DNA of 14,591 bases from Candidatus Iainarchaeum sp. (GCA_043809245.1 JAZDDZ010000046.1:1-14591), one strand, 5' to 3'; positions 1,176 through 14,591 are shown, numbered from the stretch's first letter. The notes: generated by a model from the letters alone, not told the origin. A program made the numbers and translations.

Positions 1176-2024
1176 GTGGGTTTTTTCGTGCATAAGGCTT
1201 TGCTGGCTTTTGCCTGTGTTTTGGCAATTATGGCTTGCGGGAGCGCTTTGGCTGCGGATTTTTCAGTGAGCGGTTTTCCTGCAACAGTCAGCTTTTATGC
1301 TGCGCCAAAAGACATTTCATTTACTGTGAAGAATGATTCCAATTCCATAAGGAGCCTCTCCGTGGATTTCTTTGTTCCAGTGGAAGTCAAATTTTTGGAA
1401 TTGCCTGACTTCATTGGCGCTGGAGAAGAAGCGCAAGTTAAGGCAAGGCTTTTTCCGAAAGAGGAATTGATTGGTTCAAAGTACAACAGCCGCGCGGTTA
1501 TTTTTGTGGGCGCGGAAAAGGCTGAGAAAACCTTAAGGCTGAATTTTTTTGCAGCGGAAAAATGCATGTTGGATTTATCAATCGCAAAAAAGGAAACCGA
1601 TGTGAACGGATTGCATGACATTAACCTCCTAATACAAGCATCAAACCCAAGCCTCGCTTCGGCGAAATTGGAATTGCTTGAATTGAAGGGGCTGCCAAGT
1701 GACTGGGGTTATTCAATTGTTGGCGGGGAAAAAAAAGTTTCAGTTGAAGCGCAAGGGAATTCCGTAATAGAAATTGACTTGATTGAAAAAAGCGCTTTTG
1801 ACGGAAATGTTTCCGCAATTCTTTCCTGTGATGGCTTCCGCGCGGGGCAAACAGTTTCCGTTAAGCATGAATCCAGTGAAAGCGGGGCTGGGCTGATGGT
1901 TTTAAGCGGTTTGGCGTCTTTTTTCACCTCTGAACTGGCATTAGATATATTTTTAGCCTTAATTGCCTCAATTCTGCTGATTGCATTCCTGGCAAGGCTT
2001 GTGAAGAGAGTGGCGGTGAAGTGA
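1176..2024 (+). CDS. Cell-surface protein: signal peptide, two Ig-like (COG1470/NEW3-like) domains, C-terminal TM anchor
   Basis: GTG start, signal peptide ending ALA-AD, beta-rich pattern (FTVKNDS; GLPSDWG), C-terminal hydrophobic helix followed by basic residues. Confidence 0.85.
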   Translation: MGFFVHKALLAFACVLAIMACGSALAADFSVSGFPATVSFYAAPKDISFTVKNDSNSIRSLSVDFFVPVEVKFLELPDFIGAGEEAQVKARLFPKEELIGSKYNSRAVIFVGAEKAEKTLRLNFFAAEKCMLDLSIAKKETDVNGLHDINLLIQASNPSLASAKLELLELKGLPSDWGYSIVGGEKKVSVEAQGNSVIEIDLIEKSAFDGNVSAILSCDGFRAGQTVSVKHESSESGAGLMVLSGLASFFTSELALDIFLALIASILLIAFLARLVKRVAVK

Positions 2025-2025
2025 A

Positions 2026-5000
2026 TTGAAGGGAAGAATTAGCGCTTTATTTGTTTCATTAATATTTATTATGCTGGCTGCGGGTTTCTCGCTCGCGGCA
2101 GACGTTCAAGTGGTTCAGCCAAACGGCTCCGAACTTATAAGCCAGGCGAACGGAAGCTATTCAATAATTTTTGACATAAACGCTTCCGGCGCTGTTTTCG
2201 CGGATGGAAACGAATTCAATTACATTTTGGATACAGCAACTGCAACAGTTTCGTACGGCGCAACAAAAATAGCTGACCTCAACTTGCTTGAAGCAGGAGC
2301 ATGCAACAGCGCAAACCTTTCAAACAAAAGCACTTGTTCGCTTGAATGGAACACAAGCGGCATAAACGGCGCTTATTCAATTACGGTTAATGCAGCGCTT
2401 TCACATGAAGGCGGCACGATTACGTTAAGCGATTCAAGCGACGCGCAATTCAATGTGGATAATGCGGCTCCAACCGCTTCACAGAAAAGCCCGGCACCGG
2501 GAAGCGCCACAAACAACAGGGCTAAGGACATTTCCTTCCTGCTCTCCGATGCCGCAGGCGTGAACATAAACTCGCTTGTGTTGACTGTAAATGACACGAA
2601 TTATTCCTGGCCTAATCCATCGCTTTCATTTGACGCAAACGTTTTAATGTTTGACAATCCAGTGCAGTTTGCAGCGGAAACAGATGTAAACATTTCAGTT
2701 GACGTGAAAGATGTTTTGGGAAACAGGCTTTTCGATAAATGGGCTTTTGTTGTGGACGCAATTCCCCCTGCGCCAATTGACAACCTCGCCTATTCACTTG
2801 ATTCATTCAACCGCTTAAACCTTTCATGGAGCACGCCGGCATCAAGCAAAAGCCCTGTAAGCAATTACAAAGTGTACAGGGCAACCTCTCCGCGAAATGA
2901 ATCAAACAAGGGAACCGCGCTCGGCACAACCTCTTCAACTTCTTACACGGACGCAACAGCCGTTGAGGGAACCTCCTACTATTATTACGTTGCATCAATT
3001 GATGCAGCGGGAAACGAGTCATTGCTTTCAAACGAATTAAGCGCCACTTATTCAACTGATTTCGGGTTAACTCTTGACAAAACCGCGGTGAAAATGGAGA
3101 AAAGCGGTTCGGTCGCGGTAACCGTTACGGCTTTCAACAACACTGCTGAAAGGAAATGCTTTGAATTGAAGTCAACGGTTGACAACAGCAATTTGAAGGT
3201 TGCGATTTCCAACAAAAATTTCTGCTTAAACAAAAATGAAACCCTGAAAACAAGCGCTGTGCTTTCAACATCCTCTTCAATAAGCGACGGGGCATACACT
3301 GCAAGGCTCAGGCTCATCAGCGGTGCAACTGAAAAAAACGCGGAAGTGTCAGTAACAGTCGGCCAGGTGCAGGCAATTGAATTAACGCAACTGAATGCAG
3401 GCGCGGATTTCTGCATTGAAGGCTATTCAAAAAACCTCAAAATAGATGTGAAAAACAATTCCGCTTCAACTGCAACTGTTTTGCTTAACGCGGAATCAGA
3501 ATTGTTTGTGCCGGAAGTGGAAGAAACTGAATTGGAGCTTGCTGCTGGAGAGTCAAGGGAATTGAATGTAAAGGTTAACATAAACCAGACAACGCAGCCG
3601 GGAGATTACACGGTTACGGTTTTCGCGCGCTCAGGAAGCCTGTTGGTTCAGAAAAGCCTTTCATTCACTTTAGAGGACTGCGGCCCAAGCGCGGAAACAA
3701 AATTCTCTGTTTCAATCTCCGGCGGTTGTGTGGAACTGGACAAGAACGCGGGAACAAAAACGCTTTCATTCACTTTGAAGAATCTCGTGAATTACGATTA
3801 CAGCGTTTACCTGAGCGCTTCAGGCGGCTTAAGCTATGACCTCAATTCGCCAGTGGAACTTGAGGCGAACGGCTCTTACAGCGGAAAAATAAAGTTCACA
3901 GGCAGTTTGGATGACGTGAACGGAGACCACAAGATTGTGTTTTACGCTTCAGGCGAAGGCCAGACAACTGACAAGAACCTCTGCATAAGGGTTAAGCCAA
4001 TCCATTGGGCGGAAGTAAGCGTTGAAAAAAATACCGCGGAAGACCATCAAGTCAAATTAGAGCAGGCTGAAACATTCCAGATAAGGGTTAGGAACAGGGG
4101 CGACTTCACTGAAAAGCTTGACTTAAGCATTGAAAGCGTTTTCTCCTCAATTGAATCTGATTTAAGCGAATCCTCAATAACCCTTAAAGCAGGGGAAACA
4201 GGAACCGTGTTTGCAAGTGTGGCGCCAAAAACCGGAACCGCTTTAGGGGACAAAACAATTTACCTTATAGTGAAATCAAAGGGAGCGAAAACCACGACAA
4301 CAAGGACTTCGGGGGACATTTACACGCTAAAGGTGAACAAGTTAAGCGAAAACCTCAACACAAGCTCAATCAAGTGGGTTGCTGGAGGCAGCACTTACAA
4401 TTTGAACAGCAGCCAGTTAAGCTATGACAGCGAAGAAAAATCAATCATCTTCGAGCCAAGCATTGGTTTCACTGAAGGGCAGAAGGCAACGCAAAGCATT
4501 GACTTTTTTGACAGGCGCGGAAACCGCTACTTCCTCTGGTTTGACTTTTTGCCGGGCAATGAAAGGCTTTCAAATGAAAGAATCGTTTTAAGGTTTGACG
4601 ATTTCAAATACGAAGTAGACGAAGGCAGCATCGAGCTTGAGGTCAACGGCATCACTTACAGCGAGGGCGGGGTTGAACTTAATTACAATTCAACCGACAA
4701 GGAACTTGTGTTCGAGCCCGAAGACGAATTCGCGAACAATGAAACAGTCAAAGCCGAGTTAAGGTTCAGCGACGTTCAGGGAAACCAGTTCACATTCAAC
4801 TACGAATTCACTGTAGGCTCAACAACCATAAGGGAGCCTTCACTGAAAGTAAAAATCGGAATGACCGATGCGGCAATTGACTCCGGAACAATTGACTTCG
4901 GCTGGAACGGAAGCTTTTACGATGTAAGCGATTCACAGTTAAGCTATTCCTCTTCAAGCAGGACAATTTCCTTCAATTCAAGGCAGAACTACACCGCGCC

Positions 5001-5955
5001 GAAAGACTTTGACTTTGACATCACATTCAGGGGAGGCACAGCAAACCAAAACCTGCAGGGAACAATTAACGTGAAGGAAAACCTCAAGAGAGACGATGAC
5101 AGGCTTGAAATAACCCTGAACGAACTTGACGGAACAATCAAAAGGGACAGCGTTGAGTTCACTGTAAACGGGGAAACATTTGACGCGGACAGCGATGAAA
5201 TAACAGTCATTGAATCCCAGAACCGCGTAAGCTTTAACCTTGCGAACACGTTTTACTTCGGCGACACGATTGACTTTGAGCTTAAAGCGGAAGACAGCAC
5301 AGGGGATTCAGTTGACTTAACAGGCGAACTTGAGCTTGGCGCCGAGCAGGGGGAAAGCGGAACAGTGACAACAAGCACCGGCGTTTACGTGAAAACACCG
5401 CTTCACTTCAAAGTCATTGAAGCAGACCACAGCCTGCAGGAAGGCGTAATAGAAATAGTTAATTTTCCCTCGGAAATAAGCCTTAACCCGGGCGAGGAAA
5501 AAGAGGCAAGCATTTCAATCAAAAACAATTCCAATGAAACGATTCCAAAAATAACGATAAGGCTCTGGGGCTTAGGCACTGCGACTTACTTCAAGAACCT
5601 TGAAATAATTGATTTGGCGCCAGGGGAAACAAGGACAGTGAAGGGAACGCTGATTGCATCAGAGGCAACGCTGAACAACAAGGCCTATGATTTAACGCTT
5701 GAGGCAAGGTCTGATAAATTCATTGCGACAAAAACAATCAGGTTAAAGGTAGGCGAAGTTGAAGAGCCACAGGGGCCTGTTGAACAAATCCAGGGATTTG
5801 TAATGGGGCTGGTAACCTTTATAAGTAGTCACGCATTAATTGGATTGGGTTTATTAATATTAGTGGTGGTAATAATTGTTATTGTTCTTGCGCTCAAAAG
5901 GCATTATATTGGCCCAAAAGAGCAGGAACAGGTTTGGCTGAAATACAAGCCCTAA
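2026..5955 (+). CDS. Large (1309 aa) cell-surface glycoprotein / adhesin-like protein with Ig-like, fibronectin type III and COG1470/CARDB-like domains and a C-terminal TM
   Basis: TTG start 1 nt after the previous stop; signal peptide SLA-AD. FN3 signature LNLSWS...YKVYR...YTD...YYYYVASIDAAGNES at about 2755-3048. Repeated (V/L)xN strands, many N-x-S/T sequons, and TM LIGLGLLILVVVIIVIVLAL followed by KRH. Confidence 0.9.
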   Translation: MKGRISALFVSLIFIMLAAGFSLAADVQVVQPNGSELISQANGSYSIIFDINASGAVFADGNEFNYILDTATATVSYGATKIADLNLLEAGACNSANLSNKSTCSLEWNTSGINGAYSITVNAALSHEGGTITLSDSSDAQFNVDNAAPTASQKSPAPGSATNNRAKDISFLLSDAAGVNINSLVLTVNDTNYSWPNPSLSFDANVLMFDNPVQFAAETDVNISVDVKDVLGNRLFDKWAFVVDAIPPAPIDNLAYSLDSFNRLNLSWSTPASSKSPVSNYKVYRATSPRNESNKGTALGTTSSTSYTDATAVEGTSYYYYVASIDAAGNESLLSNELSATYSTDFGLTLDKTAVKMEKSGSVAVTVTAFNNTAERKCFELKSTVDNSNLKVAISNKNFCLNKNETLKTSAVLSTSSSISDGAYTARLRLISGATEKNAEVSVTVGQVQAIELTQLNAGADFCIEGYSKNLKIDVKNNSASTATVLLNAESELFVPEVEETELELAAGESRELNVKVNINQTTQPGDYTVTVFARSGSLLVQKSLSFTLEDCGPSAETKFSVSISGGCVELDKNAGTKTLSFTLKNLVNYDYSVYLSASGGLSYDLNSPVELEANGSYSGKIKFTGSLDDVNGDHKIVFYASGEGQTTDKNLCIRVKPIHWAEVSVEKNTAEDHQVKLEQAETFQIRVRNRGDFTEKLDLSIESVFSSIESDLSESSITLKAGETGTVFASVAPKTGTALGDKTIYLIVKSKGAKTTTTRTSGDIYTLKVNKLSENLNTSSIKWVAGGSTYNLNSSQLSYDSEEKSIIFEPSIGFTEGQKATQSIDFFDRRGNRYFLWFDFLPGNERLSNERIVLRFDDFKYEVDEGSIELEVNGITYSEGGVELNYNSTDKELVFEPEDEFANNETVKAELRFSDVQGNQFTFNYEFTVGSTTIREPSLKVKIGMTDAAIDSGTIDFGWNGSFYDVSDSQLSYSSSSRTISFNSRQNYTAPKDFDFDITFRGGTANQNLQGTINVKENLKRDDDRLEITLNELDGTIKRDSVEFTVNGETFDADSDEITVIESQNRVSFNLANTFYFGDTIDFELKAEDSTGDSVDLTGELELGAEQGESGTVTTSTGVYVKTPLHFKVIEADHSLQEGVIEIVNFPSEISLNPGEEKEASISIKNNSNETIPKITIRLWGLGTATYFKNLEIIDLAPGETRTVKGTLIASEATLNNKAYDLTLEARSDKFIATKTIRLKVGEVEEPQGPVEQIQGFVMGLVTFISSHALIGLGLLILVVVIIVIVLALKRHYIGPKEQEQVWLKYKP
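4330..5340 (+). repeat. Four diverged tandem protein-level repeats of about 85-90 aa (Ig-like) within the 1309-aa protein
   Basis: Units align by eye: SSIKWVAGGSTY..QLSY..SIIFEP..DRRGN / GSIELEVNGITY..ELNY..ELVFEP..DVQGN / GTIDFGWNGSFY..QLSY..TISFN / DSVEFTVNGETF..EITV..RVSFN..DSTGD. Confidence 0.75.
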
Positions 5956-5977
5956 AAAAAAGCTTGCCTCAGCCAAA

Positions 5978-6027
5978 TAAGCGTTTTGAACGAGTGAAGC
6001 TTGGTATTTATTTGTTCAACACGCTTA
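5978..6027 (+). other. Long intergenic RNA hairpin
   Basis: 5978-5998 pairs with 6007-6027 at 20 of 21 positions, including three G-U pairs that work only on the + strand. Confidence 0.7.
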
Positions 6028-6046
6028 GAAAAGGGATTGGTGGGGT

Positions 6047-8620
6047 TTGGCTTTGAAGGCATGGTTTTTGGCTTTATGCGCTGCAATGCTTTTGCTCGCG
6101 GTTTCCGTTAACGCAGCGGAATTCACGGGCGGATGCTCTTTTTCAGGAGTGCAGTGCGATTTAATGGTAAAAGAGCTCATGCTCTGCAACAACTCCGCTT
6201 CAGATAAAACTTTTTTTGTTTCAAGCTCCGGCGACAAGGCAAGCTGGCTTAACGTTGTCCCTGAAAGCGTTTCACTTGTTGCAGGAGAATGCAAGCCGGT
6301 TAACGTCGCGTACATTGCCCCCTGTTACCAGGCGCCTGGCAATTACTCAGCGGAAGTGACCGCAAAGGCAGGCACTGACACTGCAGCACAGGCATGCATT
6401 CTTGAAGTGAAGCAGGGAAACGAGGCAATGGTTTCAGTTTCTCCAGGGGCACAGAGCGCAACTCAATGCGAAAACAAGGCTTATGCGATTGACGTTTCAA
6501 ACAATTCAACTGTTCCAAACCAAAACGAGCAAATAATTTACCTGAATGTTTCGGGAATTCCCGCTGAATGGTTCAGGCTGGCAAAGGAAAGCATTGTTGT
6601 CGGAAAAGGCGCAACTGAATCAGTTGACTTAAATGTAATGCCTCCTTGCACAGCGGCTTTGGGAAAATACGATTTCAAGGTAACGGCTTCGCTTTTCAAC
6701 AAGGACTTCAAAAGCGATGCAACAGCATCCTATGAAATAACGCAGGGGCAGGCAGTGGAGTTAAGCGCTCCGGAAAAACTGGGCAAATGCATGGAGGAAA
6801 CCGAGGCAAAAAAAATCACGGTAAAAAATACAGGAAAGCTTGCGGACGAATTCACGCTCTCAGTTGACGGCCCGGAATGGGTTAAGCTCGCAGAGAACAC
6901 TGTTTCGCTCGCGGCAGGCGCTTCCAGCGACTTGGACTTGATTCTTGAAAAAAGCGAAAGGCAGGGCTCTTTTAAAGTGGAAATAACCGCTGAATCAAAA
7001 AAATTCGGGGTAAAGGAAAGCGCGGAATTCAGCGTTGTTTCGGAGAACTGCTTTGAATTGTCTTTGGAAAAGGTTTCCGGCGATGAAAGCGTGTGCGCAG
7101 AGGAAACCCCTGAAATGGAGTTCACTGCAAAAAACAAGGGCTCAAGGGACTTCAATGGGGAGATCAGCTTCAGGGGCTTCAATTCTCTGCCGCAAACTGT
7201 TAAAGTTTATTTAAGGCCGGAGGAATCGCAGAGCATAAAGCTGCAGTTGGATGTTTCAGGAATCATTGACGCTAACTCAGGTGGAAAAAAGGCAAAGCCA
7301 GTGAAAAAAGACCTCATCGCATCAGTTTCATCTGAATTCTTTTACTTAGACGAAAAATTCCCAATAACCGTGAACGACTGCTATAATTTGTCTGCGGAAA
7401 AAACAAAGGCGGCTTTGTGCGCAAAAACCGGCTCGGAAATTTCACTCACAGTAAACAATTTGGGCTCAAAGGACAGGGCGCTTGAAGTAAACGTTTTTCC
7501 GGGGTGGATTAGCGCGGAAAAAGAGTTAACAGTTAAGGCAAATTCAAGCGCAAAGCTTTTATTGAAAGCAATTGTTCCTGAAAACGCCCCTGAAAAAGAG
7601 GCAGTTGTCTCGTTAAAGGACAGGTTTGTTTCAATGGAGGAAAAAATCCCCATCGAATACCTTGATGAACGCGAATGCTTTGGATTAGAGGCATCTGCTT
7701 CCGATAAAGAGGTTGACGCGGTTGTCGGCGAGGGAACAAAATTCACTTTAAGCGTTTCAAACAGGGGAATGGTTGCGCAAACAATTTCTTTAAGCGCTGA
7801 CAAGGAATGGGTTTACATTTTTCCGAAAACAATTGAGCTTGCGCGCAATGAAACGCAGGAAGTTTTCTTTCTCATCAGCCCGCCATTCGATGCAAGGGAG
7901 CAAAACCAGAAAGTTGTTTTTTCAATTGACTCAAATTATGGCTTCACAGCGGAAACCGAAATAACCGTTGGAATTTTCGGCGCAAGGCAAGGCATTGAGC
8001 CAGTGAAGCTTTCCATTGAGGCAGGCGAGGGAGGAAAAGCGGATGCGAACGCGATTGAAACCGCATTCACTCTTTCAAACAATGGCGCAAAGGCACTGCT
8101 TGTTTACTCAATTGAAGCGCTTGACTTTAACGCTGAAATAAAGACAAGCGATGGAAAAATTGACGTTAACTCCTCGATTAAAGGAATGCTTTCACTTAAT
8201 CTGCCGGTGGATTCAAACGCATTAAAGGACAAAAACTCGTTCACAGTTGTTTTGAAAATTGAAACAGACCAGGGAACCTTTGCAAGGGAACTGAACATTG
8301 ACCTTAAAGCAGTTGAAGCATCAGACCATAACGCGTCCGGCGGGGAAGGCGCTGCAGCAGCGGGCCTGATTGCCTTGCTTAACCCTTTGAACATTCTTTT
8401 AGCACTTGTTGTAATTGTTGCCGCAATTGCAATCATTGCCTTTTTCATGTATTCACGGCAGCCTGCATACCGTGAAGGAAAGCCTTCAATTGCTTTCGTT
8501 GAAGATGAAACCGCGCCAACAGCCCAGCAGCCAATAATTGAATTCGCTTCAGAGGAAAAGCCAAAGCCAAGGAAAAAAAGAAAGGCCGCAAAAAAAAGGC
8601 CCGGAAAAAAGAAAAAGTAA
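6047..8620 (+). CDS. Cell-surface protein (857 aa): tandem Cys-containing COG1470/NEW3-like Ig domains, C-terminal TM and Lys/Arg-rich cytoplasmic tail
   Basis: TTG start, signal peptide VNA-AE, repeats of (V/A)xNxG...W (VKNTGK..GPEW; VNNLGS..PGW; VSNRGM..KEW), TM ILLALVVIVAAIAIIAFFMY, tail KPKPRKKRKAAKKRPGKKKK. Confidence 0.9.
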   Translation: MALKAWFLALCAAMLLLAVSVNAAEFTGGCSFSGVQCDLMVKELMLCNNSASDKTFFVSSSGDKASWLNVVPESVSLVAGECKPVNVAYIAPCYQAPGNYSAEVTAKAGTDTAAQACILEVKQGNEAMVSVSPGAQSATQCENKAYAIDVSNNSTVPNQNEQIIYLNVSGIPAEWFRLAKESIVVGKGATESVDLNVMPPCTAALGKYDFKVTASLFNKDFKSDATASYEITQGQAVELSAPEKLGKCMEETEAKKITVKNTGKLADEFTLSVDGPEWVKLAENTVSLAAGASSDLDLILEKSERQGSFKVEITAESKKFGVKESAEFSVVSENCFELSLEKVSGDESVCAEETPEMEFTAKNKGSRDFNGEISFRGFNSLPQTVKVYLRPEESQSIKLQLDVSGIIDANSGGKKAKPVKKDLIASVSSEFFYLDEKFPITVNDCYNLSAEKTKAALCAKTGSEISLTVNNLGSKDRALEVNVFPGWISAEKELTVKANSSAKLLLKAIVPENAPEKEAVVSLKDRFVSMEEKIPIEYLDERECFGLEASASDKEVDAVVGEGTKFTLSVSNRGMVAQTISLSADKEWVYIFPKTIELARNETQEVFFLISPPFDAREQNQKVVFSIDSNYGFTAETEITVGIFGARQGIEPVKLSIEAGEGGKADANAIETAFTLSNNGAKALLVYSIEALDFNAEIKTSDGKIDVNSSIKGMLSLNLPVDSNALKDKNSFTVVLKIETDQGTFARELNIDLKAVEASDHNASGGEGAAAAGLIALLNPLNILLALVVIVAAIAIIAFFMYSRQPAYREGKPSIAFVEDETAPTAQQPIIEFASEEKPKPRKKRKAAKKRPGKKKK

Positions 8621-9630: not shown

Positions 9631-10233
9631 ATGGAAGCAAAGCCAATCCTCTGGTTCACAATCATCGCAAACCTTGCCGGCGCGTACTTCGGCTTCTTTG
9701 TGTACTATTCCACACAGCTTTTGTCCACTAATCCCTTGCTGTGGGTTTTTGTGGCAGACTCCCCTTTAAGCGTAACTGTGTTCGCAATCGCCTTGGTGCT
9801 GATTGCCTTCAACAAAAAAAGCGATTTCCTTAACTTTCTTGCAAGCGCTTTGGTGCTGAAATACGGCTTGTGGACAATTTTTGTAATAACCGCTTTCCCT
9901 GACATCTTTTTTTCGCCGCAGAGCCTCTGGCTTTACATTGCAATGTTAGTGCTTCACGCTGGAATGGTTTTGGAGGCATTCGCCTTGGCTGGAAAAACCA
10001 CGCTAAAAACCGCTACTTGGGTGATTGTTCTGGCTTGGCTGCTGTTGAATGACGTTTTAGACTATGGTTTTGGCTATTTTCCTTCATCCATAGCCCATAC
10101 AGGCCTCTCAATCGTTGCGCCAGTGAGCCTGTTGCTTTCCTTTGCCTGCATTCTGCTGCTTTTCGCTGCATTCAGGAAAAACAAGCCGAACGCGCTCTCA
10201 AAATTGCTGTTTTTTCCGGAAAAACTCACTTAA
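9631..10233 (+). CDS. DUF1405 (YpjA-like) integral membrane protein
   Basis: [33 protein letters not shown] and W...ND..DY motifs; about 7 TM. Confidence 0.85.
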
Positions 10234-12481
10234 CCTTCGCCTTATACCCTTTCATCAGCAAAGAATTTGACACAACGAAAATGCTGCTGAAAGCCATTGC
10301 ACCGCCCGCAATCATGGGATTCAAAAGCAAGCCAAAAGAAGGGAAAAGGATTCCAGCCGCAATCGGAATCCCCGCGACATTGTAAATGAAAGCCCAGAAA
10401 AGATTCTGCTTTATTTTGTTGACAGTGTATCTGCTCAAATCAATCGCGGTTGCGACGTCACGCAAGTCATCCTTGATTAAAACAATGCTGCCGGTTTCAA
10501 GCGCTACATCTGTTCCGGAACCGATTGCAATGCCGACATCAGCCTGCGCCAAAGCAGGAGCGTCGTTTATTCCGTCTCCAACCATTGCAACCTTTTTTCC
10601 CTCAGCCTGAAGCGCCTTAATTTGCTTTTCTTTTTCTTCAGGAAGCACTTCAGCCAAAACCCTTTCAATGCCAAGCTGTTTTGCAATCGCATTGGCAGTT
10701 CGGGAATTGTCGCCGGTAAGCATCACTGTTTCCAAACCCATTTTCTGCAGCAATGCAATTGCCTCGCGGGAATGCTTTTTCGGCACGGCCTGCGCGGCAA
10801 TCATGCCGGAAGGCTTGCCCGCAAAGGAAACAAGCATCACTGTTTTTCCCGCATCCTCCAGGAAAACAATTTGCTTTTCAAAAGGATTGAAATCAATTTT
10901 TGACTCCAGCATTAATTTCCTGTTGCCCAAAAGAATCTTTCCGTTCTTCCACTCCGCTGTAATTCCTTTTCCGGGAATCGCGCTGAATTTTTTTGCATCC
11001 CCCGCATTAATGCCTTTTTCTCCGGCTGCCTTTACTATGGCTTCCCCAAGCGGGTGCTCAGAGCCTTTCTCGGCAACAGCAGCCAATTCAAGCAAATCCT
11101 TTTCTTTTCCTGAAAATGCGATAACATCCGTGACCTTTGGGGTTCCCTCAGTCAATGTGCCTGTTTTGTCCAAAACAATTGTGCTGACTTTGCGCGCGGT
11201 TTCAAGCGCTTCGCCGCCCTTGATGAGTATGCCGTTCTCAGCGCCTTTTCCCGTGCCAACCATTATCGCAGTGGGAGTTGCAAGCCCTAAAGCGCACGGG
11301 CACGCAATAATCATTACCGCAATGAAAATAGTGAGGGAAAAAACAAAGCCCTGCCCTGCAATGAAAAACCAGAAAAGGAATGAAAGGATTGCAATGCTTA
11401 TAACCGCGGGAACAAAAACGCTTGCAACCCTGTCAGCAAGCCTTTGAATTGGCGCCTTTGAGCCCTGCGCTTCCTCAACAAGGCGAATGATTTGCGCAAG
11501 CGTTGTGTCCTTGCCGACTTTTGTTGCCTTGAATTTCAGCAAGCCGTTCCTGTTTATTGTAGCGCCAATTACAATGCTTCCAGGGGTTTTTTCAACCGGA
11601 ATGCTTTCCCCTGAAATCATTGACTCGTCAACAGTTGAATGCCCTTCAACCACAACTCCGTCAACGGGAATTTTTTCACCGGGGCGGATTACAACAATGT
11701 CGCCGACAACAACCTCTTCAACATCAATTTCTACTTCCTTTCCATTCCTTACCACGCACGCTGTTTTTGGCTGCAGGCCAGCGAGCTTTTTTATTGCCTC
11801 CGAGGTTTTTCCCTTTGCAATCGCTTCAAGGTATCTGCCCAGAACAATAAGCGTTATGATAACCGCTGCAGTGTCATAGTAGGCGAAACCGCCTTGCGCT
11901 CCGAAAAAAGTCATTGCCGCGGAATAAAAAAACGCTGCGCTTGTGCCGACCGCAATCAAGGTGTCCATGTCAGCGCTCAGGTTTTTCAAAGCAACCCATG
12001 CGCCCCTGTAAAAGCGCAGGCCCACAAAGAATTGGACTGGAAGCGAGAGAAAAAACATCACGTAAAGGACAATTGATTCAGGCAAAAGCCTGCCGAAAAA
12101 ATCCGGAAAGGATAAAATGAAAATTATTGCGCTTAAAACAGCTGAAATGGACAAATCCCTTTTCAAAACGGAAATCTCTTTTTCTCTGGCTATCTTTTCC
12201 CTGTCGCTGAAGCCCATTTTCATGTGCCCGTGCCCTTCGTGCTGTGGCTTGGCTTCAGGCTCGGAAAGGCTGAAAGCCTTATAGCCTATTTTGTTCACCA
12301 ATCCGATTATTTTTTGCTCATCCAGCGAGCCGTCATGCTCGACTGTAATGCGCTCTGATGCAAAATTGACCGCGGCATTGTCCACTCCGCTTACTTTTTT
12401 GGCTGCCTTTTCAATTGTCAAAGCGCAGGCAGCGCAGTGCATGCCGGAAACGCCTAAAGTGATTTTCTTTTTTTCAGGCAT
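10226..12481 (-). CDS. copA: Copper-translocating P1B-type ATPase
   Basis: N-terminal HMA domain GMHCAAC, His/Met linker, SGES actuator loop, [27 protein letters not shown], and TM ligands YN and MAFSS (P1B-1, Cu+/Ag+). ATG at 12481 is preferred; TTG at 12490 is the alternative. Confidence 0.95.
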
Positions 12482-12496
12482 AAGAATCAAAGATTG

Positions 12497-12526
12497 AAAA
12501 TAAAAAAAGGAAAAAGAAAGGAAAAG
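12497..12526 (-). terminator. Pyrimidine/oligo-T tract between the Cys peptide gene and copA (possible leaky terminator)
   Basis: Minus strand reads CTTTTCCTTTCTTTTTCCTTTTTTTATTTT directly after the TGA at 12527. Confidence 0.45.
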
Positions 12527-12604
12527 TCAGTCGCAGCAACAGCAGCAGCCGGCTTTCTCTTCCTTCAGCTCTTTTTTTGCGGATTTAATTTTTTTATCAG
12601 GCAT
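12527..12604 (-). CDS. Unannotated 25-aa peptide with a penta-cysteine C-terminus, MPDKKIKSAKKELKEEKAGCCCCCD
   Basis: ATG at 12604, TGA at 12527, perfect SD GGAGGT (12618-12613) 8 nt upstream. Lies directly upstream of copA on the same strand and is below the ORF-track size cut-off. Confidence 0.75.
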   Translation of the reverse strand: MPDKKIKSAKKELKEEKAGCCCCCD

Positions 12605-12619
12605 TTTTCAAGACCTCCG

Positions 12620-12668
12620 TGGAAAATTTTCCATATATGGATTTTTGGAGCCATTACCTTTTAAAAAA
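12620..12668 (-). promoter_or_regulatory. Probable internal promoter with overlapping palindromes near the start site
   Basis: TTTTTTAAAAG (12668-12658, minus strand) followed by perfect palindromes TCCATATATGGA (12630-12641) and TGGAAAATTTTCCA (12620-12633). Confidence 0.45.
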
Positions 12669-12691
12669 GTAAGCAAAAGGCCGCGGGGGCA

Positions 12692-13171
12692 TTACCAGCC
12701 GCCCATCATTCCGCAGCCGCGTGCAGAGGGTGTATTTTCCACGCCGCCATTGTTTGCATAGTATCCCTGCATCATGCCATTCACGCCCATCATTCCGTAA
12801 GGCGTGCTATAGCCGTATCCGTTCATCATGCCGCTATAGCCTGCGTATTCCGTGCTTGTGAAATTCCCGCAGTACATGTGCTCAGCCATGTTTATGTGCA
12901 TTGCATCATGCTCTGGTGTGCCTTCCTCAAAGCCCATCATTTGGTGCATTAACTCATGGGCTTCGCCTGGATGCATTTGCTCCATTAAGTATTCGCCGAT
13001 TGCCTCCAGTTGCCCATCGTTAAGGCTGCTGCAGCTTGCGCCTGAATCCACTAACTGTTTTCCCTCTGCTATTTCCTGGCTGATGCCGGTTTCAGTTGGC
13101 CCTGCAAAAATCAAGAGCGCACTGAAAAGCATTACAGCCAGAACCGTTGAACCCAATAACACTTTTTTCAT
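12692..13171 (-). CDS. Exported or membrane-anchored His/Met-rich hypothetical protein, putative metal binding
   Basis: N-terminal hydrophobic segment; MEQMHPGEAHELMHQMMG...HDAMHINMAEHMYCG; repeated GMM; ends GCGMMGGW. SD GGAGG spacing fits ATG 13171 better than 13177. Confidence 0.85.
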   Translation of the reverse strand: MKKVLLGSTVLAVMLFSALLIFAGPTETGISQEIAEGKQLVDSGASCSSLNDGQLEAIGEYLMEQMHPGEAHELMHQMMGFEEGTPEHDAMHINMAEHMYCGNFTSTEYAGYSGMMNGYGYSTPYGMMGVNGMMQGYYANNGGVENTPSARGCGMMGGW

Positions 13172-13199
13172 TTCCATTCCTCCATTAAAAACATCGTGT

Positions 13200-13460
13200 T
13201 CAACATCCCCCGACCTGCTGTGCGGGCGGAGCCGAAACAGTTGTGCTAACAGGTGCCTGTGGTGCTGAAATCGTTGAAGCCACGGAAGCCGTGGCAGAGG
13301 TTAAACCCGCTGTATTCTGCCCTGCAGCCGAGAAAAGCGCTGTCTCCTGCGCGCTAACCCTTTCATTCAGCGAGCCGAGTGAAAATGTTTGTATCAATGC
13401 AATGGCAAGCACTATTGCCAGCCCTGCCATTGCCAGTGTTTCGGTTTTTATTTCAACCAT
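13200..13460 (-). CDS. Small membrane-tethered protein ending in QVGGC
   Basis: N-terminal TM, Ala/Ser/Thr/Pro low-complexity stalk, C-terminal QQVGGC. SD GGAGGT lies 7 nt upstream, inside the previous gene's last codons. Confidence 0.8.
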   Translation of the reverse strand: MVEIKTETLAMAGLAIVLAIALIQTFSLGSLNERVSAQETALFSAAGQNTAGLTSATASVASTISAPQAPVSTTVSAPPAQQVGGC

Positions 13461-13461
13461 T

Positions 13462-14196
13462 TTAACAACCTCCTACCTGTGTTGAGCCTGAAACCGCCCC
13501 ATTCTCTATTCCCTTGTATTTGTTTGAAGCAAGGTTAATGTAATTCAGCTCTATTCCCTGCTCCTGCAGCACCTGCGCTTTTGCAGCCATGTTGCTGGGG
13601 AAGTAAAGCGCCTTCCATTTGCCTAATTCCTCTAAAATCTGGTCGTTGGTGAATTCATTTGGGTGCTTTTCAAGCAGATACTTTGCAAGGCCCCTCATCG
13701 CGCCTGAGTGAGCGCAACCGCATGCCGCCTGGCCATTGGAAAAAGTTATTGCGTCAGCGCCGCAGCAGTACTCGCATGAAATGTTTGTCGTGACAGCAAT
13801 GTAACGGGAAAGCGTTTCACCGCTCAAGGCGTCATTGTCATACCTAGCCATTTTTGCAATTGCATCGTTTGCCTTCTGCTGGTTTGAAACGGATACATCA
13901 TCGTAAGAAACGCCCAATTCCGCCCCGTAAATCCTCGGAACGCCCTTGGGAATCACATCGGAGAAAGAAGCGGAAGAAACACCGGAAGAGGCACTGGGGG
14001 TGGGCGCTGCACCGCTTAAGGAGCTTGCGCCGCCTTTAACGGAAATCAGCGAAACCAGCGCCTCCTGCCGGTCAAGTGAAGAATCAATTCCTGCGGCTGT
14101 GAAAAAATTCAGGCCCAAAACAAGTATAACCGCGACCATTAGCGCGCCGAAAATAGTCCAGTTAAAAGAACTTTCCTTTTTTTCCGATTCAGCCAT
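13462..14196 (-). CDS. Membrane-anchored hypothetical protein (244 aa) with a CxxCC...CGCxH cluster, ending in QVGGC
   Basis: SD GGAGGT (14208-14203) 6 nt before ATG 14196 (MAESEKK), preferred over the track start at 14238. N-terminal TM, Ser/Ala linker, ISCEYCCG...AACGCAHS, C-terminal TQVGGC. Confidence 0.85.
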   Translation of the reverse strand: MAESEKKESSFNWTIFGALMVAVILVLGLNFFTAAGIDSSLDRQEALVSLISVKGGASSLSGAAPTPSASSGVSSASFSDVIPKGVPRIYGAELGVSYDDVSVSNQQKANDAIAKMARYDNDALSGETLSRYIAVTTNISCEYCCGADAITFSNGQAACGCAHSGAMRGLAKYLLEKHPNEFTNDQILEELGKWKALYFPSNMAAKAQVLQEQGIELNYINLASNKYKGIENGAVSGSTQVGGC

Positions 14197-14243
14197 CAAA
14201 AAACCTCCAAAAAAACCAAAATGCTTTGCAACACACAAAAGGA

Positions 14244-14260
14244 TTTACAAATTGTGTAAA
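14244..14260. promoter_or_regulatory. Candidate operator for the BlaI/CopY-family regulator
   Basis: Inverted repeat TTTACA-N5-TGTAAA in the divergent intergenic region. It contains the TACA/TGTA half-sites used by BlaI/MecI/CopY. Confidence 0.55.
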
Positions 14261-14298
14261 GCATTACATTTTTAAACATATGCCGCGGAATGATAATT

Positions 14299-14591
14299 AT
14301 GGAGCTTGGAAAGATTAACCTGGAGAAGGACGGCGTTGAAGCGCTTGTCGGCTCCCTTGAATCCGACATAATGAACTATTTGTGGAAGCACGGCAGCTGC
14401 TGCTGCAAGGAAATGTTTGAATCGCTTGGGAAAAAGAACGGCATAGCGCCGACAACTGTTACGGTTACATGCGACAGAATGTATGGAAAGGGCCTGCTTG
14501 AAAGGAAAGTGGAGAGGGGCAAGGGCGGATTGAAGTACATTTACTCCCCGAAAATTTCAAAGGACCAGATGGCCTCAAAGATTTCAAAAAA
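14299..14591 (+). CDS. BlaI/MecI/CopY-family winged-helix transcriptional regulator (partial, runs off the window)
   Basis: Translated by hand: MELGKINLEKDGVEALVGSLESDIMNYLWKHGSCCCKEMFESLGKKNGIAPTTVTVTCDRMYGKGLLERKVERGKGGLKYIYSPKISKDQMASKISK..., showing the LE..IM..LW, TTV....R...KG.L.R and Y.YSP signature. Alternative in-frame ATG at 14290. Confidence 0.9.
   Translation, partial: MELGKINLEKDGVEALVGSLESDIMNYLWKHGSCCCKEMFESLGKKNGIAPTTVTVTCDRMYGKGLLERKVERGKGGLKYIYSPKISKDQMASKISK

Follow-up and report, generated by a model that had tools for sequence, protein, structure and literature searches.

The cop operon of Enterococcus hirae consists of the CopY repressor, the CopZ chaperone and the CopA and CopB ATPases, and half-sites of the TACA/TGTA type are known for CopY, as they are for BlaI and MecI. 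Copper ATPases of the P1B-1 class have a characteristic signature set: CPC in the transmembrane region, DKTGT, an N-terminal HMA domain with CxxC, and the YN and MxxSS motifs. The extracytoplasmic proteins of copper islands include Cys-motif proteins, such as CopG/DUF411 and the thioredoxin-like Scs (suppressor of copper sensitivity) proteins, while PcoE, CopM, CusF and CopC are Met/His-rich periplasmic copper binders. To our knowledge, little is understood of extracytoplasmic copper handling in archaea, and nothing is known of it in the host-dependent DPANN lineages. The locus described here belongs to Candidatus Iainarchaeum sp., a DPANN archaeon from groundwater (GCA_043809245.1; 1.48 Mb in 55 contigs, 91.8% complete), and lies at one end of contig JAZDDZ010000046.1 (C46), the whole of which, 14,591 nucleotides (nt), is the window analysed. 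In it, the gene of a BlaI-type repressor (Reg) diverges from four genes, named A, B, C and D, that are followed by copA (Table 1).

This locus represents a genuine, conserved and so far undescribed accessory module of archaeal copper defence, for which a biochemical mechanism can be proposed. The five genes on the minus strand, between 10226 and 14591, are tightly packed: the gaps between A, B, C, D and copA are 1, 28, 87 and 45 nt (C counted from 13171), and Shine-Dalgarno sequences precede A, B, C and D. A sequence-only reading of the window had claimed a divergent BlaI-type regulator and four same-strand genes followed by copA, and all six genes are found on the strands claimed. The assignment of copA as a P1B-1 copper ATPase is secure. 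It scores 650.9 bits with TIGR01511 (cut-off 397), matches E1-E2_ATPase, Hydrolase and HMA (E 2.9e-14), and has readable CPC, DKTGT, YN and MAFSS motifs, one N-terminal HMA domain (CAAC) and a His-rich stretch. Neither copZ nor TRASH, csoR or multicopper oxidase genes are found among the 15 window open reading frames (ORFs) scanned, again as had been claimed, and in the 91.8%-complete genome there is no stand-alone HMA or YHS chaperone; the only HMA domain above the cut-off is the one inside copA, and YHS has 0 matches. The view that A, B and C belong to no described family also holds. A, B, C and D have no family match in a Pfam and NCBIfam scan of the window proteins, 120 homologues of A have no consistent match in Pfam at E values up to 10 (no listed family matches more than 6 of the 120), and no description of A, B, C or the operator was found in the literature.

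Table 1. Positions of the features of the copper locus, counted from the first nucleotide of the window
Feature	Position	Strand	Description
Reg	14290-14591 (100 codons, to 14589)	+	Penicillinase_R, truncated by contig end
Operator	14242-14268		dyad ATGCTTTACA-N5-TGTAAAGC, 1 mismatch
TATA-like box TTTTTAAA	14269-14276		abuts operator, read from sequence
A	13462-14196	-	244 residues; Cys domain, QVGGC end
B	13200-13460	-	86 residues; transmembrane helix, stalk, QQVGGC
C	12692-13171	-	159 residues; His/Met-rich
D	12527-12604	-	25 residues; Lys/Glu-rich, ends GCCCCCD
D-copA spacer	12482-12526	-	T-rich, without operator, read from sequence
copA	10226-12481	-	P1B-1 Cu(I)-exporting ATPase

Protein A, which starts at an ATG behind GGAGG, has a signal-anchor helix, a Ser/Ala linker, a conserved Cys domain with CEYCC and CGCAH, and the short tail. 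It has at least 1653 homologues at E <= 0.001, all unnamed or 'hypothetical', in records labelled Iainarchaeota/Diapherotrites and Woese-, Aenigm-, Nano-, Pace- and Micrarchaeota, and an exhaustive profile search gathers 318 clusters at 50% identity. Among the strong matches of a representative-library search none leads to a named family, and a search of the ESM Atlas returns unnamed clusters only. Seven residues, C155, C158, C159, C173, C175, H177 and H192, are invariant in the alignment of 120 sequences. One fusion protein of the family carries FKBP_C and the others no further domain, which gives no functional hint. Kinship with the PCYCGC family (PF13798) was considered and rejected, the hhalign probability against seven PCYCGC neighbours being 2.5%.

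The distinctive feature of A and B is the tail that they share. In B it follows the transmembrane helix and a low-complexity stalk. Among the 10,165 six-frame ORFs of at least 40 residues in the genome only two end in VGGC, the adjacent A and B, and the tail common to them is more than chance. The tail codons are GTA GGA GGT TGT in A and GTC GGG GGA TGT in B; since three of the four third positions differ, and the stop codons too, the identity of the tails is kept at the protein level and is not that of a recent DNA copy. The last Gly codons of A, GGA GGT (window 13462-13475, minus strand), are also a GGAGGT Shine-Dalgarno sequence 7 nt before the ATG of B, by which the tail sequence of A doubles as a predicted coupling signal that makes B translationally coupled to A. 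Relatives of A occur in 323 loci of contigs from one genome per species; 80 of these loci, holding 81 A genes, were fetched. The Cys-ending tail is present on 67 of the 81 A proteins, as MVGGC in 62, QVGGC in 2 and a close variant in 3, while 14 stop just past the globular domain. A small same-strand ORF ending in G[GS]C lies within 450 nt after A in 76 of 81 cases, and 13 of the 14 tail-less A proteins have a tailed B all the same. Both QVGGC-ending A genes are paired with a QVGGC-ending B, as in the window, and an alignment of 48 sequences shows no variation at the tail residues V, G, G and C. Judged from these sequences, the A-B cassette is conserved across DPANN archaea.

In many homologues of A and B the low-complexity stalks also contain short conserved His/Met motifs, MSGWTE.EKM.YE.HG and GGETYEEMMARMHP (for example P0020, P0021, L013:3487-3756 and L016:8653-8898). 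The second of these resembles MEQMHPGE in C, as linker motifs of other species such as MARMHP resemble MEQMHP; A and B of the window are without such motifs.

The link to copper is provided by gene neighbourhoods and by the phyletic pattern. All ORFs within 5 kb of A were clustered over the 80 loci and one representative per cluster was scanned; a CopA-like ORF was counted over the whole of the flanks (up to 8 kb) where its E value was below 1e-20. Such an ORF is present in 20 of the 80 loci, where random placement would give about 1.1, an approximately twentyfold enrichment, and in 16 of the 39 loci that are at least 12 kb long. PadR-TRASH is found near A in 18 loci, DUF411/CopG in 17 and Cupredoxin_1 in 7; within 5 kb, 41 of the 80 loci have at least one known copper marker (CopA, DUF411, PadR-TRASH or Cupredoxin_1). 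The C family is found near A in 17 loci. The commonest neighbours are a membrane-anchored MarR-like regulator (61 loci), two unnamed Cys-motif membrane families, cl2 (50) and cl3 (45), and the unnamed Cys-motif family cl4 (39); less common are thioredoxin-like proteins (15), M48/M56 proteases (14), BlaI-like repressors (13), redoxins and DsbD-like proteins (11 each) and PCYCGC (6).

In the order, 196 genomes were compared, with A present in 36 and copA, counted at E of 1e-30 or better, in 111. Copper ATPase genes are present in 33 of the 36 genomes with A and in 78 of the 160 without it (Fisher P ~1e-6, a value that overstates the association, since related genomes are not independent). The three A-bearing genomes without copA are 93%, 60% and 79% complete, and in 17 of the 33 genomes A and copA lie within 20 kb of each other on one contig. 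With this pattern, A-B behaves as an optional add-on to copA-bearing genomes. The association of the accessory genes A, B and C with copA and other copper genes, which the sequence-only reading needs, is found far above chance.

A second line of evidence is the operator. In the intergenic region between Reg and A the TATA-like box is followed by the dyad, which is overlapped by TGTAA-N4-TTACA; the palindrome, a site of 23 base pairs (bp), has the core ATGCTTTAC-N7-GTAAAGC (GCTTTAC-N7-GTAAAGC) and is also present in 11 further genomes of the order. With at most one mismatch, the core dyad has four sites in the genome: window 14242, C31:987-1009, C55:10404-10426 and C42:37160. The last is inside a coding region and is taken as chance, and the other three are all at intergenic promoters. 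The arrangement of TATA-like box and dyad recurs between Reg and A at 9 of 13 related loci, where the A proteins are only about 50% identical and the box is kept as TTTAAAAA beside the dyad. Among the 196 genomes of the order, 12 have an operator without mismatch, and A is present in 11 of these; the reversed control pattern, counted at up to one mismatch, gives 3 matches over all genomes. The operators are typically paired, 1.2-4 kb apart, and flank the repressor-protease genes; in 10 other genomes A has one of the pair some 100 nt upstream. Reg would be the protein that binds this operator, and the TATA-like box possibly serves both divergent promoters. The candidate regulon is newly defined, and the regulator and operator shared by the accessory genes are conserved across species.

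The third operator, on C55, precedes the gene of a 210-residue multi-pass membrane protein (L083 742-1374, minus strand) with an HMA-like C-terminal domain in which CSGH takes the place of CxxC. This protein has no Pfam or NCBIfam match, and its homologue directly follows A-B in a related locus (L057:3560-4393). Genes for DsbD-like, redoxin and superoxide dismutase proteins adjoin the same operator.

Reg matches Penicillinase_R (PF03965; E 7.8e-14, 52.4 bits with a cut-off of 22.6). Contigs C31 and C32 both begin with the 141 nt that end the window (14451-14591); the contig end is therefore an assembly fork with these two contigs, and the locus in the window is cut, not complete. Both contigs complete Reg to 122 residues, and the C-terminal part encoded on C31 also matches Penicillinase_R (26.1 bits). 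The CxCx4CxC motif found at the C-terminal end of CopY is absent from the full 122-residue protein, and the part of Reg in the window scores only 29.4 bits with CopY_TcrY (TIGR02698; cut-off 121.95). Each contig then encodes a BlaR1/HtpX-like membrane protease of 237 residues with HExxH and a conserved N-terminal Cys pair; the protease of C31 (C31:232-945) scores 37.0 bits with M48 (cut-off 20.3) and 35.4 bits with M56 (cut-off 31). It has no penicillin-binding sensor domain, scoring 16.5 bits with blaR1_generic (cut-off 400). Of the earlier description of the regulator as BlaI/CopY-type, the BlaI-like part is borne out by the Penicillinase_R match and the protease partner, and the CopY-type metal sensor is not, for lack of CxCx4CxC. 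Reg probably autoregulates, with a dyad operator at its own promoter.

Past the protease, C31 has the second operator and an operon headed by a 386-residue protein, followed by two Cys-motif proteins. The 386-residue protein has a CGHC head, glutaredoxin-like or weakly DUF411-like, and a permease-like body; the DUF411-like stretch, the sole one of the genome, is sub-threshold (18.1 bits, cut-off 27). This 2.6-kb operator-controlled operon (C31:945-3514), placed between the protease gene and tRNA-Ser(TGA), is missing from C32, which is otherwise 86-96% identical to C31 and also reaches tRNA-Ser(TGA). The difference looks like a strain-level presence/absence polymorphism.

From these features we lean towards the view that the locus forms one branch of a regulon by which a DPANN archaeon responds to copper or thiol stress, with outward-facing Cys and Met/His carriers. 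The BlaI-type repressor, bound to the 23-bp palindrome beside the TATA-like box, would hold down the A-B-C-D operon, perhaps with copA included, and would also control its own repressor-protease operon and two further promoters elsewhere in the genome. The membrane Zn-protease of BlaR1/HtpX type, which lacks a sensor domain, would sense stress through its N-terminal Cys pair and remove the repressor. CopA would export Cu(I) from the cytoplasm. A and B would sit outside the cell, each anchored by one N-terminal helix and each presenting a terminal Cys thiol on a flexible tether; A would add a compact CC...CxH/CxxC site on a CcmH-like helical fold, and C a Met/His four-helix site and a Met-rich tail. 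The three proteins would capture exported Cu(I) at the surface as thiolate/thioether complexes shared between tails and domain, which would keep copper from re-entering the cell or from oxidising envelope thiols, while DsbD/CcdA-like and thioredoxin-like neighbours would keep the cysteines reduced. Of this scheme, the gene set, the conservation of the families and of the operator, the neighbourhood statistics and the resemblance in fold are observed; we infer the binding of the operator, the stress signal, the topology and every metal or redox step.

A bolder and rather doubtful version of the scheme assigns a special role to the tail. The protein-tethered terminal Cys of these DPANN archaea may be a surface stand-in for a low-molecular-weight thiol, an N-acyl-cysteine on a membrane leash that would shuttle Cu(I) or electrons between the exit of CopA, the Cys3His/CxxC domain and the Met/His sponges, and that would be switched by the sensor-less BlaR1-like protease as it reads copper or thiol stress through its own Cys pair. 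If true, the tethered Cys would add a new class to the known extracytoplasmic metal/redox carriers, and the protease would represent a new input for BlaI/BlaR1 signalling.

Several observations weigh against the assignment to copper capture. In 39 of the 80 loci there is no known copper marker within 5 kb of A, and in 60 there is no copA in the fetched flanks; a thiol-redox marker (thioredoxin-, redoxin- or DsbD-like) is present in 26 loci, about as regularly as copper. Thioredoxin-like and Cys-motif proteins in the second-operator operons of relatives fit a redox role equally well. Both A and B of the window have Gln in place of the tail Met, so that Met is not an essential ligand. Since copA has no operator of its own, and the T-rich tract between D and copA might act either as an internal oligo-T terminator or as a promoter of copA, the co-regulation of copA is unproven. 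Peptide D is not conserved either: a composition filter over 930 kb of related loci finds only two K/E-rich Cys peptides of loose similarity, along with three small YHS-like proteins. D has a GGAGGT Shine-Dalgarno sequence 8 nt upstream of its ATG and is the sole ORF of such composition in the genome. A pattern scan for five Cys codons was set aside, since it matched in 121 of the 196 genomes and all 30 loci inspected were out-of-frame artefacts. The suggestion of the sequence-only reading that D is a cytoplasmic buffer is speculation; a chaperone-like function is possible but unsupported, and a cytosolic Cu(I) buffer would be the weakest element of the scheme.

The strongest of the alternatives, though an unlikely one, is that A-B serves mainly as an extracytoplasmic thiol-disulfide relay. 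In it, A would act as a CxxC reductase similar to CcmH and supplied by DsbD/CcdA-like and thioredoxin-like proteins; under oxidative or copper stress it would maintain envelope proteins, or the terminal cysteines of A and B themselves, in the reduced state, with copper as the stressor and not the cargo. The structure model of A has a mean predicted local distance difference test (pLDDT) score of 83.5, with residues 90-245 above 90; the tail, at 77-86, is not modelled as free disorder. An exhaustive structural aligner superimposes residues 135-241 of the model on CcmH (2hl7_A), its best match, with Z 6.7 and a root-mean-square deviation of 2.2 Å over 73 of 82 residues (next Z 4.0); this match is below the aligner's safe level for helical folds and has no sequence-level link. 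Foldseek finds nothing for the model in the PDB at E <= 0.001, the A profile finds nothing relevant and no CcmH match among PDB sequences, and CcmH (PF03918) does not appear in the list of the 25 families matched most often by the 120 A sequences. The similarity of the A domain to CcmH, by fold only, is suggestive, and in A the CxxC follows the first helix of the domain. A predicted complex of A(88-246) with B(40-86) scores 0.26, where the mark is 0.32, and speaks neither for nor against an interaction of the two.

The gene context of such a relay is also present: the thiol-redox neighbours counted above, the second-operator operons of relatives, which begin with a small protein and a thioredoxin-like protein, and the DsbD-like and redoxin genes beside the third operator. 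However, profile comparison weakly links A to the neighbouring family cl16 (probability 58.5%, E 9.6e-5), a distant paralogue that keeps CC...CxH and a near-terminal Cys at its end but not the CxxC pair. This pattern favours a Cys3His metal site as the probable shared core of A and cl16, and three further invariant Cys/His residues of A would not be needed by a dithiol reductase. Copper markers are also commoner neighbours than thiol-redox ones, and the His/Met motifs in the linkers and in C point to metal binding. The earlier proposal of a copper-handling system is partly supported, by copper co-occurrence and the shared operator, but the thiol-redox neighbours make a redox role its live rival.

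That the terminal Cys is a site of covalent attachment is quite improbable. It could be lipidated, with VGGC as a lipobox-like motif that provides a second anchor, or it could carry a persulfide or another adduct, as on the arm of SoxY, which likewise ends in a Gly-flanked Cys. MVGGC would fit a loose lipobox pattern, a gene of the DUF1405/LhaT family abuts copA in the window, and Lgt-like genes (Pfam LGT, E 3.8e-80; for example L036:1295-2083, neighbour cluster 17) are near the cassette in 8 of the 80 DPANN loci. In the order, however, Lgt (PF01790) is found in none of the 196 genomes, including the 36 with A, by a search whose control matched 10 bacteria, and Lgt-dependent lipidation of the tail is rejected for this order. 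No hydrophobic stretch precedes the motif, the tail is present on only two proteins per genome, unlike a sorting signal, and no Sox or other sulfur-oxidation genes are found among the 24 neighbour-cluster representatives scanned.

Protein C, the third accessory protein of the proposed copper module, has a signal-like N-terminus, a four-helix His/Met domain and a Met/Gly/Tyr-rich tail, and unlike most of its relatives it has no C-terminal transmembrane helix. In an alignment of the family, which has at least 530 homologues, some with SHOCT, residues C49, H69, P70, H74, H94 and C103 are invariant and Met residues near-invariant. The model shows four confident helices at residues 31-102 (pLDDT ~90). 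Against the PDB, Foldseek gives no match at E <= 0.001, profile search gives none, and the best aligner hit, with Z 4.1, is unrelated. A CpxP/LTXXQ-type reading of C is not supported, there being neither a Pfam match nor a related fold hit; an LTxxQ-like string in relatives of C was spotted by eye only. C is present in 9 of 41 related genomes, with ArsR, PadR-TRASH, cupredoxin, HMA, DUF302, copA or the repressor-protease pair as neighbours.

These neighbours bear on whether the cargo could be another thiophilic metal (Ag, Hg, Cd or Zn) or a metalloid, which is very improbable. C-family genes are often beside ArsR-type regulators and DUF302, and the membrane part of the 386-residue protein on C31 weakly matches an ArsG-type permease (E 1.3e-5), but the linked pump shows the P1B-1 signature, its best-scoring model is that of the copper subfamily, and the linked known families, DUF411, Cupredoxin_1 and TRASH, are the copper ones. 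That the accessory genes are unrelated surface proteins which merely lie beside copA, as the many loci without copA might suggest, can practically be dismissed in view of the twentyfold enrichment, the shared and conserved operator and the translational coupling of the genes.

The remaining genes of the window encode Ig-like surface proteins, a DUF5654 protein, a small metallopeptidase and a DUF1405 protein, with no copper family among them. The DUF1405 membrane protein gene (9631-10233, plus strand) is convergent with copA, which it overlaps by 8 nt, and its product scores 75.8 bits with the LhaT/YpjA family model, below the cut-off of 255. DUF1405 is identified as the lipoprotein N-acetyltransferase LhaT, and copper resistance is tied to the N-terminal modification of lipoproteins, in one report (PMC12345273). 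Three consecutive large proteins of 282, 1309 and 857 residues (1176-8620, plus strand) have Ig-like/NEW3/FixG_C repeats, signal-like N-termini and C-terminal transmembrane anchors with Lys-rich ends behind them; a role at the cell surface or in adhesion is probable. In the spacer between C and D (12605-12691, minus strand), an inverted repeat, CCTTTT...AAAAGG, accompanies two short perfect palindromes, CCATATATGG and GGAAAATTTTCC. An Rfam scan of the window matched no family; in a search of sequencing runs no RNA run was listed, and a tenth of the sampled words occurred in one DNA run.

The copper module is of interest because gene order, phyletic pattern and a shared, conserved operator connect a well-known type of copper pump with three conserved but unnamed protein families, A, B and C, and because the cassette suggests that copper is handled outside the cell in a manner not yet studied. 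It provides small expressible targets, namely the A ectodomain, the six-residue tail, the 75-residue His/Met domain, the 122-residue repressor and the 23-bp site, and allows tests of thiol-based metal defence and of a BlaI/BlaR1-type switch without a beta-lactam sensor.

Each part of the locus resembles a known system and has its own distinctive features. CcmH, the periplasmic thiol oxidoreductase of cytochrome c maturation (PDB 2hl7), is a membrane-tethered, outward-facing three-helix bundle with CxxC in the loop after helix 1, and A may be a small helical bundle of the same kind and placement; A differs in having no detected sequence relationship with it, and in its inserted CGCxH hairpin, extra Cys, conserved N-terminal subdomain and Cys tail. 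In SoxY, the carrier arm ends in GGCGG, with the Cys as the working group. A and B likewise have a Gly-flanked Cys at the very end of a flexible C-terminal peptide, but this Cys is the last residue, an N-terminal helix serves as anchor, and the SoxY fold, a SoxZ partner and a sulfur-oxidation context are all absent. Like CopG/DUF411 and the Scs proteins, A and B would be extracytoplasmic Cys-motif proteins of copper islands that depend on a DsbD-type electron supply; the DUF411 genes near A lie within 5 kb of the A-B cassette, and A, B and C are not members of the DUF411 or Scs families. C shares with PcoE, CopM, CusF and CopC invariant His and near-invariant Met residues on a small secreted domain and a Met-rich tail, but differs from them in having no sequence or fold match to any solved structure.

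At the level of regulation, the locus resembles the E. hirae cop operon in having a Penicillinase_R-family repressor and dyads of the TACA/TGTA type at a promoter that would drive a P1B ATPase. Unlike in that operon, the repressor has no CxCx4CxC and CopZ is not found; instead, the locus has a partner protease and four extracytoplasmic or small proteins not described before. With BlaI/BlaR1 and MecI/MecR1 the locus shares the repressor family and an adjacent membrane M48/M56 Zn-protease with HExxH. The protease differs from BlaR1 and MecR1 in being only 237 residues long, in lacking the penicillin-binding sensor domain and in having the conserved N-terminal Cys pair, and the regulon, unlike those of BlaI and MecI, consists of copper and thiol genes in an archaeon.

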